This document shows, one piece after another, positions 56,782-57,550 of a DNA stretch of 64,000 nucleotides. Source of the stretch: Eledone cirrhosa (taxonomy: Eukaryota); NCBI GenBank assembly GCA_964016885.1, contig OZ024742.1, forward strand, positions 218,798,001 to 218,862,000, written 5' to 3'. Below the pieces are notes generated by a model. That model searched no databases and was not told the DNA's origin. It saw nothing but the letters and a program-made list of their open reading frames with translations. Position 1 is the stretch's first letter. Each line of letters starts with the position of its first letter. Made by a program: the position numbers and the translations under genes.

Positions 56782-56830
<49 letters not shown>

Positions 56831-56943
56831 TATTTGGCAATACACCGTATGTTTAATTAAAAACATTTTGAAAACCTTGCGCTATCATTTTAAAGTAGTG
56901 ACTATGTCACTTACTTCTTTTTGGGGCAAAGGAAGGGAGAGAA

Positions 56944-56984
56944 GCTGACAGATTCTGTTTCACACTGTTGGTGATCCTCAGAGC
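56944..56984 (-). ncRNA. Hammerhead ribozyme (inverted copy)
   Basis: GCT-CTGAGGA-tCAC caaca GTGt-GAAA-CAGaatCTG-TC-AGC. Confidence 0.75.
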
Positions 56985-57296
56985 AACGTACTCCCGGCCT
57001 CTGCCGAAAATTATAGAGGCTGGATTCTTATAGAATTCCAGTAATAATCAGGAACTGATTATATAGAGCGATTGGCGATCCAGCAAAAATTAAAAATTAG
57101 GATTGGTGCTCTGAAATAGTATATTGCCAAATATACTATACATACATTCATGTTTACATCGCTATTTCAGAGCACCAATCCTAATTTTTAATTTTTGCTG
57201 GACCGGCAATCGCTCTGTATAATCAGTTCCTGATTATTACTGGAATTCTATAAGAATCCAGCTTCTATAATTTTCGGCAGCGGTGGGGAGTACGTT

Positions 57297-57337
57297 GCTC
57301 TGAGGAACACCAACAGTGTGAAACAGAATCTGTCAGC
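57297..57337 (+). ncRNA. Minimal hammerhead ribozyme
   Basis: GCT-CTGAGGA-ACAC caaca GTGT-GAAA-CAGaatCTG-TC-AGC, GUC site; stem I only 3 bp. Confidence 0.8.
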
Positions 57338-57500
57338 TTATCTCCCTTCCTTTGCCCCAAAAAGAAGTAAGTGACATAGTCACTACTTTAAAATGATAGC
57401 GCAAGGTCTTCAAAATATTTTAAATTAAACATATGGTATATTGCCAAATATACTATACATACATTCATGTATACATCGCTATTTCAGAGCACCAATCCTA

Positions 57501-57550
<50 letters not shown>

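Follow-up and report, generated by a model that had tools for sequence, protein, structure and literature searches.

A miniature retrozyme-type insertion in the Eledone cirrhosa genome suggests mobilisation by Penelope enzymes

A short insertion, here called the mini-element, occupies positions 56786-57526 of a 64-kb stretch of the Eledone cirrhosa genome (contig OZ024742.1 of assembly GCA_964016885.1; the whole of the stretch analysed is referred to as the window, and all positions are counted within it). Between a left (TA)n target tract of approximately 21 repeats (56786..56827) and a right tract of 13 repeats (57501..57526), which gives way to (TG)n up to 57550, lie a 294-bp inverted arm on the minus strand (56826..57119) and a direct arm on the plus strand (57119-57502). 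The direct arm consists of one 317-bp non-coding unit (57186..57502) and a 67-bp terminal repeat, 384 nt or 1.2 units in all, such that an upstream, pseudo-LTR-like copy of the repeat (57119..57185, plus strand) recurs downstream (57436..57502, plus strand) at a period of 317 with 1 mismatch in the 66 positions compared. The inverted arm, a partial copy of less than one unit, aligns without gaps to 57162-57455 in reverse complement, 14 of the 294 positions being mismatched; at its outer end it shares about 4 nt with the left (TA)n. This order of parts had been proposed in a preliminary description of the locus, and both the coordinates and the alignment agree with it. Missing from that description was a tail of 45-49 nt, its length depending on how the TA overlap is assigned, which is present on the direct arm alone (57456..57502, plus strand) and by which the inverted arm stops short; following excerpts of a biochemical study (PMC11167929), it is interpreted as the tail typical of Penelope-like elements (PLEs). 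The left (TA)n doubles as the 3' end of an older repeat fragment (approximately 56500-56790), a diverged piece of the element at 51683-52516 that supplied the (TA)n for the insertion of the mini-element. No second copy of the mini-element was found in the 64-kb window and, as expected, a 30-nt stretch of it has no exact match in prokaryotic genomes.

The inversion junction (57116..57139) is spanned by a perfect 10-bp hairpin with a 4-nt loop, the outer base pairs of which exist only after joining, and the microhomology there amounts to 1 nt in the strict sense (57119), or to 4 nt on the assumption that the hairpin took part. Counted from the end of the inverted arm to the start of its direct counterpart, 42 nt lie between the two arms. 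The tail is mildly AC-rich (0.60 vs. 0.50), a level matched by 47 of 317 overlapping windows, and the AC content of six other tails in the window ranges from 0.43 to 0.54; an AC-rich tail was rejected as a general rule, being weak in the mini-element and absent from these six. An 8-nt stretch of the tail (57484-57491) is antisense to helix I and the core of the hammerhead described below (57296-57303), a match which may turn the ribozyme off in a monomer or may be due to chance.

With a GC content of 36.6%, the unit falls below the limit of 45-50% associated with retrozymes, and stop codons interrupt all six of its reading frames. No trace of a PLE protein was detected in the element using tblastn with 118 PLE homologues (nothing better than E 1.9), a pattern search found neither Pol III promoter boxes (A/B) nor an octamer, and neither a tRNA head nor a tRNA was present. 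A tRNA-derived SINE was ruled out on the lack of A/B boxes, of a tRNA and of similarity to the SINE-like repeat of the window. The unit RNA is predicted to fold as a chain of hairpins (z -4.8 for 57186-57502; z -4.2 for the permuted unit 57162-57478), and of 50 control windows only two reached z -4.2, these being the 3' end of an autonomous PLE and an inverted repeat. Folded as a circle, the RNA is predicted to pair tail and unit start through a 6-bp helix (p about 0.6). The period of 317, as read from one locus, falls within the retrozyme range of 150-450 bp, and a locus with 1.2 units and one hammerhead per orientation corresponds to a "monomer" in the scheme of a preprint on Xenopus. At the level of sequence, the mini-element would thus pass for a non-LTR retrozyme monomer, and the existence of a true 317-nt unit is regarded as quite probable.

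Both arms carry a predicted, canonical-looking type I hammerhead ribozyme. That of the direct arm (57272..57360, plus strand) has its core at 57300-57306 and a predicted cut after 57334, while the core of its counterpart in the inverted arm (56921..57009, minus strand) starts at 56981 with a predicted cut after 56947. In the direct arm, helices II (57307-57319) and III (57323-57333) have 4 bp each, closed respectively by a 5-nt loop with A as its last letter and by a non-palindromic 3-nt loop, and helix I is extended, through an internal loop, with a T at position 1.7 (57341). Pairing of an unpaired U1.7 with the last A of loop 2 is described as a contact of full-length hammerheads (PMC11875169, in part), and metazoan PLE hammerheads as typically of the minimal form (PMC4209133 and PMC6155905, each in part); given that T1.7 and the final A of loop 2 match the full-length contact, the form is read as canonical rather than minimal. 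Rfam returned no hammerhead match over the window at the gathering score, nor at E values up to 10, and hence the ribozyme call rests on a descriptor of our own, the relaxed version of which gave 15 matches in the real window vs. 2 in total in 15 locally shuffled windows. Rfam matches at E values up to 10 to microRNA-type and other hairpin models were rejected as effects of the palindrome and of simple repeats. Constrained folding placed the catalytic fold 4.6-5.5 kcal/mol above the minimum-energy fold, and pair 10.1-11.1 is A-T or T.T, where G-C is usual (PMC4209133, in part). The cores had been described as staying intact while the arms differ. Their conserved letters are indeed intact in both (57300, plus strand; 56981, minus strand), but each arm has helix damage of its own: helix II of the left arm has a T.T mismatch at its base, and helix I of the right arm a broken G-C pair beside loop 1 together with a broken A-T pair further out.

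The 14 differences between the arms (4.8%) comprise eight transitions and six transversions and are somewhat clustered (57281-57285 and 57203-57206). With 1 of the 14 a CpG transition and 3 of the 14 A/G changes, they bear no signature of CpG decay or of A-to-G editing, and both were rejected as their source. Neither does the divergence of the arms (14/294) differ significantly from that of the terminal repeats (1/66; p=0.32, and p=0.21 in a second test). No compensatory pairs were found among the 14 and, because the changes are private and non-compensatory, selection keeping both ribozymes was rejected. The simplest reading of this pattern is that the arms differ through neutral decay after insertion; arm divergence among the other fold-backs in the window spans 1/4201 to 4/43.

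Outside the insertion, at 40073..50981 on the plus strand, lies an autonomous PLE with an open reading frame of 813 aa (44623-47064). This 10.9-kb element consists of (TA)n, an inverted arm (40073-44273), a direct arm (44277-50981) and (TA)n; the terminal repeat measures about 195 bp and the tail 139 nt, and over 4201 positions 1 substitution and 3 gaps separate the two arms. In its hammerhead (core 50646), which would cut near 50780, helix II is long and helix III palindromic. The open reading frame encodes RWK-like and DKT motifs, a CxCX5C linker, a C-terminal GIY-YIG motif and, near the end, CxxC and CxH; a CX2-5CxxC finger is absent from it, as in the Hydra clade. By these motifs, and by comparison by eye with the supplementary alignment of PMC8557442, it is assigned to a Hydra-clade PLE. 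Pfam gave no RT match in this frame, and 1 of the 118 homologues of its protein carries a name. The element is young, and its unit of 6.5 kb compares with less than 3 kb reported for Hydra, the length being due to a 3' region of approximately 3.7 kb in which simple repeats abound. The direct arm starts approximately 7 nt past the cut site of the element's own hammerhead, as though the RT had run to a 5' end made by the ribozyme.

The layout of the mini-element was correctly recognized in the preliminary description as a copy of that of the 10.9-kb PLE and of a second small hammerhead family, termed family A and taken here as the loci 7551-8566 and 62553-63233; the same order recurs at all three (40073-50981, 7551-8566 and 62553-63233). 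That their sequences are unrelated is likewise borne out, as BLASTN at a word size of 7 found the mini-element itself and simple repeats only. In 20 local alignments against neighbouring stretches, the best scores were z 3.2 (family A, antisense) and z 2.4 (the 5' end of the large PLE), and the unit aligned to the large element with z -0.1 and 0.6 at its 3' end and z 2.4 and 1.2 at its 5' end. Homology to the large element, to family A and to six other neighbouring stretches was rejected, z 3.2 and 2.4 being nominal among 20. An origin of the mini-element as a derivative of the family with the 44623 frame was also discarded, there being no shared 3'-end or pseudo-LTR sequence and the hammerhead being of a different type. 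The proposal that the same enzyme moved both finds no support, given the lack of shared sequence, the other hammerhead type and tails of 45-49 vs. 139 nt, and it is unlikely that this family specifically was the mobiliser. Since Hydra and Naiad families both favour (TA)n (PMC8557442, in part), the candidate mobilisers extend beyond it.

The same arrangement was found at further positions of the window, namely 7351-7530, 38100-38501, 51019-51424 and 54321-54723, which together with 7551-8566 have tails of 63-98 nt; 62553-63233 has none. With the autonomous Hydra element included, six other insertions of the window thus have tails of 63-139 nt. The inverted arm lacks the tail in seven of the eight cases that could be parsed, and all eight are arranged head to head and read outward to (TA)n. 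The ends of the insertions overlap (TA)n by 1-7 nt, several of these overlaps having been read by eye. The units of family A are approximately 0.5 and 0.4 kb long and differ by 53 mismatches in 409 aligned positions; the copy at 62553-63233 has a fold-back junction with a 2-nt loop. The two family A loci share the order of tail to start, with local divergence at that point, which indicates that small units do move in this genome. Their proximal site is used by three ends (7551, 62553 and 63233), one of them direct, and hence behaves as a fixed start site. The loops between fold-back arms, measured at 11 of 13 loci (the other two gave no seed), range from 1 to 2360 nt, with 1-33 nt in six of the 11 and 142-2360 nt in four, so that tight snap-back and independent truncation both seem to occur.

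The preliminary description had held that its inference would fail if such inversions were equally common next to (TA)n with or without a hammerhead. A fold-back accompanies 8 of the 27 (TA)n sides that lie within 700 nt of a hammerhead and 6 of the 69 that do not (p=0.02), a heuristic comparison of 96 sides of 48 clusters and 12 retained cores in which sides sharing a locus are counted and so are not independent, and which misses the left end of the large element. Enrichment is therefore seen, contrary to that refuting condition, but a hammerhead is not a requirement: none was detected in six of the fold-backs next to (TA)n (7351, 15.6k, 38.9k, 51.0k, 55.3k and 60.8k), which are probably truncated PLE-type 3' ends, and at 59310-59479 the SINE-like repeat is folded back in the absence of both a hammerhead and (TA)n. 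From the other direction, the 15 hammerhead matches fall at 11 loci, six of which are fold-backs (6 of 8 if three weak matches, at 2565, 5502 and 17938, are dropped). On these counts, the ribozyme marks this class of element and does not cause the inversion.

Several other repeats share the window. The element at 51683-52516 has a 672-bp period, a strong hammerhead (core 52166), a terminal repeat of approximately 170 bp and (TA)n on both sides, with no inverted arm, and at 63612-63985 approximately 370 bp with a hammerhead core at 63712 lie between (TA)n tracts, again with no inverted arm. The short palindromic (TA)n insertions at 38100-38501 and 54321-54723 carry similar hammerheads with a palindromic helix III and have tails of 93-98 nt; a deletion of approximately 50 nt in the inverted arm of the former takes out the hammerhead core. 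The (TA)n fold-backs lacking a complete hammerhead extend over 7351-7530, 15515-15803, 38891-39537, 51019-51548, 55331-55758 and 60797-61821; that at 51.0k abuts the autonomous element and includes a third short inverted piece, and 60146-60281 is a relative of the fold-back at 7351. The SINE-like repeat, so labelled for the look of its A and B boxes, has many copies, among them those at 10422-10566, 27587-27912, 29173-29896, 30752-30851, 37100-37670 (a 182-bp tandem at 37100) and 59310-59603, where the fold-back of 59310-59479 sits among 13-bp repeats. An inverted pair (27796-28237 and 29455-29896; 93% identical) also belongs to these SINE-like repeats. Also present are a Helitron-like element in several frames on the minus strand (19568-24326; Pfam PIF1, Helitron_like_N, Pif1_2B and STPR), a possible decayed piece of another Hydra-type open reading frame on the plus strand (58952-59244; tblastn E about 1e-4) and, away from (TA)n, a short inverted repeat with 29-bp arms that is perhaps MITE-like (53345-53517).

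The integration footprint of PLEs, as set out in parts of Craig et al. (2021; PMC8557442), comprises a partial tandem that forms the pseudo-LTR (pLTR), next to it a truncated copy in inverted orientation, and a tail that only one end carries. Almost all Hydra families are stated there to insert in (TA)n and canonical hammerheads to be readily detected in them, and Naiad families likewise to prefer (TA)n. The mini-element has a pseudo-LTR partial tandem, an inverted truncated copy abutting the upstream pseudo-LTR, a one-end tail and a (TA)n target, and with its hammerhead it resembles Hydra-clade and other endonuclease-bearing PLEs; it differs from the elements of those passages in having no open reading frame and in the length of its tail (45-49 vs. 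30-40 nt). Non-autonomous, pLTR-forming elements of the Chlamys group are known, such as MRC1, and in the same excerpts they generally resemble the 3' ends of their autonomous partners, which the mini-element does not with respect to the local Hydra element (PMC8557442). Purified PLE protein was observed to nick and extend both strands of AT-rich DNA in vitro, with two internal start sites downstream of the hammerhead bounding the tail and with ribozyme cleavage unneeded for insertion (Frangieh et al., 2024; PMC11167929, in part); the PAc Poseidon element of that work belongs to another clade, provides an autonomous RNA and was primed without homology, unlike what is seen here.

With metazoan non-LTR retrozymes, as portrayed in sections of Cervera and de la Pena (2020; PMC7229834), the mini-element shares a non-coding unit of approximately 300 bp, a GC content below 45%, a canonical type I hammerhead and a strongly self-paired RNA. 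The base of helix II is likewise occupied by a U.U mismatch in HHR_Amex2 of the axolotl, and PLEs were proposed there as the mobilisers of retrozymes. These retrozymes are described as tandem dimers to multimers, in contrast to 1.2 units with an inverted arm in (TA)n, and against them the helix III of the mini-element is to be set, with its 4 bp and non-palindromic loop (PMC7229834, in part); the word "inverted" does not occur in the main text of that paper. According to the preprint on Xenopus, retrozymes borrow the PLE machinery and dispersed monomers are common; 24 of 57 retrozyme families matched Repbase elements, PLEs accounting for 21 of 22 matched, and 8 of 9 predicted retrozymes did not cleave. 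Its evidence is that of co-occurrence and pLTR homology, mainly in vertebrates, whereas the mini-element offers a footprint and no homology to the local PLE; the words "tail" and "junction" are absent from its text, and "inverted" appears in a reference only. In excerpts of Arkhipova et al. (2013; PMC3846280), the cargo of an Adineta vaga Penelope element had the pLTRs of the mobiliser itself and target-site duplications, unlike the mini-element. Also comparable are the opposite-strand minimal hammerheads of Schistosoma, pairs of which lie 100-700 bp apart (319 bp in the mini-element); in the relevant part of that account (Cervera and de la Pena, 2014; PMC4209133) they are ascribed to truncated PLEs, in contrast to the canonical form seen here, and a circular-template model for copies longer than a unit was already proposed.

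Taken together, the locus is best explained as one insertion of a non-autonomous, retrozyme-type element, copied into (TA)n by a TA-targeting PLE reverse transcriptase with its GIY-YIG endonuclease. This reading as a whole is considered likely, and that PLE machinery was responsible is held with high confidence, the Hydra clade being the most likely source. The template would have been a tandem or circular RNA of the unit; as both arms cross the predicted cut site and the junction of tail to start, it should have been circular (re-ligated) or an uncut multimer, with a circular rather than a linear multimeric form given slightly less than even chances. The endonuclease is envisaged to nick both strands of AT-rich DNA, as another PLE does in vitro, and the reverse transcriptase to start at two internal sites on the RNA, near 57455 and 57502, thereby making the tail. 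Measured from the cut site, these putative starts are 121 and 168 nt downstream. The direct arm, assigned to the distal site, covers 1.2 units (384 nt), which gives the 67-bp terminal repeat, and the other arm covers 294 nt; the inner ends would then have met at a natural hairpin, sharing 1-4 nt of microhomology, and the arms would afterwards have decayed independently to their 4.8% difference. Some observations sit less easily with this explanation: the mini-element is known from one locus in the window; it shares no sequence with the local autonomous element, whereas PLE-linked retrozymes of Xenopus often match pLTRs; Rfam is silent on the hammerhead, the catalytic fold of which is not the minimum-energy fold and pair 10.1-11.1 of which departs from G-C; 8 of 9 predicted Xenopus retrozymes failed to cleave; the tail is only mildly AC-rich; promoter boxes are lacking; and PLE priming in vitro used no homology (PMC11167929, in part), whereas ends in the window overlap (TA)n by 1-7 nt.

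How the inverted arm arose is a matter of mechanism within this explanation, and the two accounts considered are versions of it rather than additions to it. The preliminary description had named snap-back or twin priming; the layout is a documented footprint of PLEs, while one copy separates neither mechanism from the other. In a snap-back, priming would occur once, at the distal site, after which the cDNA would fold on the hairpin 57116-57139 with a 4-nt slip, copy itself and join the left (TA)n through microhomology, leaving arms identical at birth. The perfect 10-bp hairpin that spans the junction speaks for this, its outer pairs, which exist only after joining, fit a fold-back with such a slip, the left end overlaps (TA)n by about 4 nt, loops are as short as 1-33 nt in 6 of the 11 measured fold-backs, and palindromes at inverted junctions of rotifer PLEs were read as self-priming (PMC3846280, in part). 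This has to be set against the reuse of a proximal site at fixed positions, also by a direct arm of family A, the priming of both strands in vitro (PMC11167929, in part) and the loops of 142-2360 nt in 4 of the 11, and a snap-back is entertained as a possibility of less than even weight. Fold-back may also merely close an intermediate that had been doubly primed.

In the twin priming of L1 elements, a single target site supplies two primers and the product is inverted head to head, with microhomology at the junction; the inverted 5' segment there is non-overlapping, whereas the arms of the mini-element duplicate 294 nt. Applied to the mini-element, twin priming would take place on two RNAs, or on neighbouring units of one multimer, and much of the 4.8% difference would pre-date the insertion. 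Terminal repeats that differ less (1/66) than the arms (14/294), the clustering of the arm differences and a direct arm that reaches only about 19 nt past the preceding unit's proximal site are in keeping with this, as are the heterogeneity of retrozyme RNAs (PMC7229834, in part) and a predicted PLE dimer (PMC11167929, in part). The contrast in divergence is, however, not significant, compensatory changes are absent with each arm carrying its own defect, one mismatch lies inside the 19-nt overlap, where both arms would have had the same template bases in a single multimer, and the spread of divergence among fold-backs is as ageing would give; we regard an origin from two templates as doubtful.

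Three further accounts would dispense with some part of the preferred explanation. The locus could hold no 317-nt element at all, being instead two stacked, 5'-truncated pieces of a PLE 3' UTR (317 and 67 nt, joined through a template jump) with an inverted arm made by snap-back. The single locus in the window would suit this, as would the equally strong folding of the autonomous element's own 3' end (z -3.7 and -4.0), the common occurrence of short truncated PLE ends in the window (7351, 38.1k, 51.0k and 54.3k) and the fact that a snap-back copy would repeat the junction without lending it independent support. It is nevertheless improbable: two unusual events would be needed, a predicted helix crosses the junction of tail to start, family A provides real units of 0.4-0.5 kb with the same tail-to-start order, and the hammerhead is of the canonical, monomer-competent kind known from retrozymes, those of metazoan PLEs being mostly minimal or with a palindromic helix III (the hammerhead of Hydra-1_oBim has a 4-bp helix III; PMC8557442, in part). 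An inversion at the level of DNA, in which an ordinary direct insertion was followed by a break at (TA)n and its repair through fold-back synthesis, with no reverse transcriptase involved, gains something from the six (TA)n fold-backs with no detected hammerhead and from the folding back of the SINE-like repeat. It appears very unlikely given that fold-backs are absent from 63 of 69 (TA)n sides with no nearby hammerhead vs. 19 of 27 with one, that the inverted arm lacks the tail in 7 of the 8 parsed cases, matching the published geometry of PLEs, and that all eight are head to head and read outward to (TA)n. As for a fold-back chimera of sequencing or assembly, palindromes are frequent in the window, but the arms show 14 differences and do not end at the same template position, where a chimera would be near-identical, and this account is hardly credible.

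The layout, the opposite-strand pairs of hammerheads, mobilisation in trans and the link between retrozymes and PLEs have all been published already. Use of the integration footprint as evidence for the last of these was not found in the literature searched, a body of work from which most subscription papers and Repbase were absent, and such elements may already be catalogued. With the parts known and one aged copy at hand, the value of the locus lies in its testability rather than in surprise. The mobilisation of animal retrozymes has so far been argued from shared ribozymes, co-occurrence and pLTR homology; an insertion that keeps a PLE-specific footprint is evidence of a different type, and it predicts the starts of reverse transcription to within a few bases. 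A 317-nt RNA would also make a convenient minimal substrate with which to approach both recognition by PLE proteins and the origin of the inverted arm (second RNA or fold-back). The mini-element thus joins, as a small representative, a class of hitch-hiking elements already described, and the findings suggest that Penelope enzymes move it. More speculatively, and with a probability that we would place on the low side, PLE proteins may recognise passenger RNAs by structure, in this case reverse-transcribing an unrelated circle of a canonical-hammerhead retrozyme for 1.2 rounds, with two internal start sites, and integrating it on both strands. If this were true, the inverted-plus-tail footprint would assign animal retrozymes to their PLE mobilisers genome-wide, and the several small (TA)n palindromes of the window would represent a guild of such passengers.
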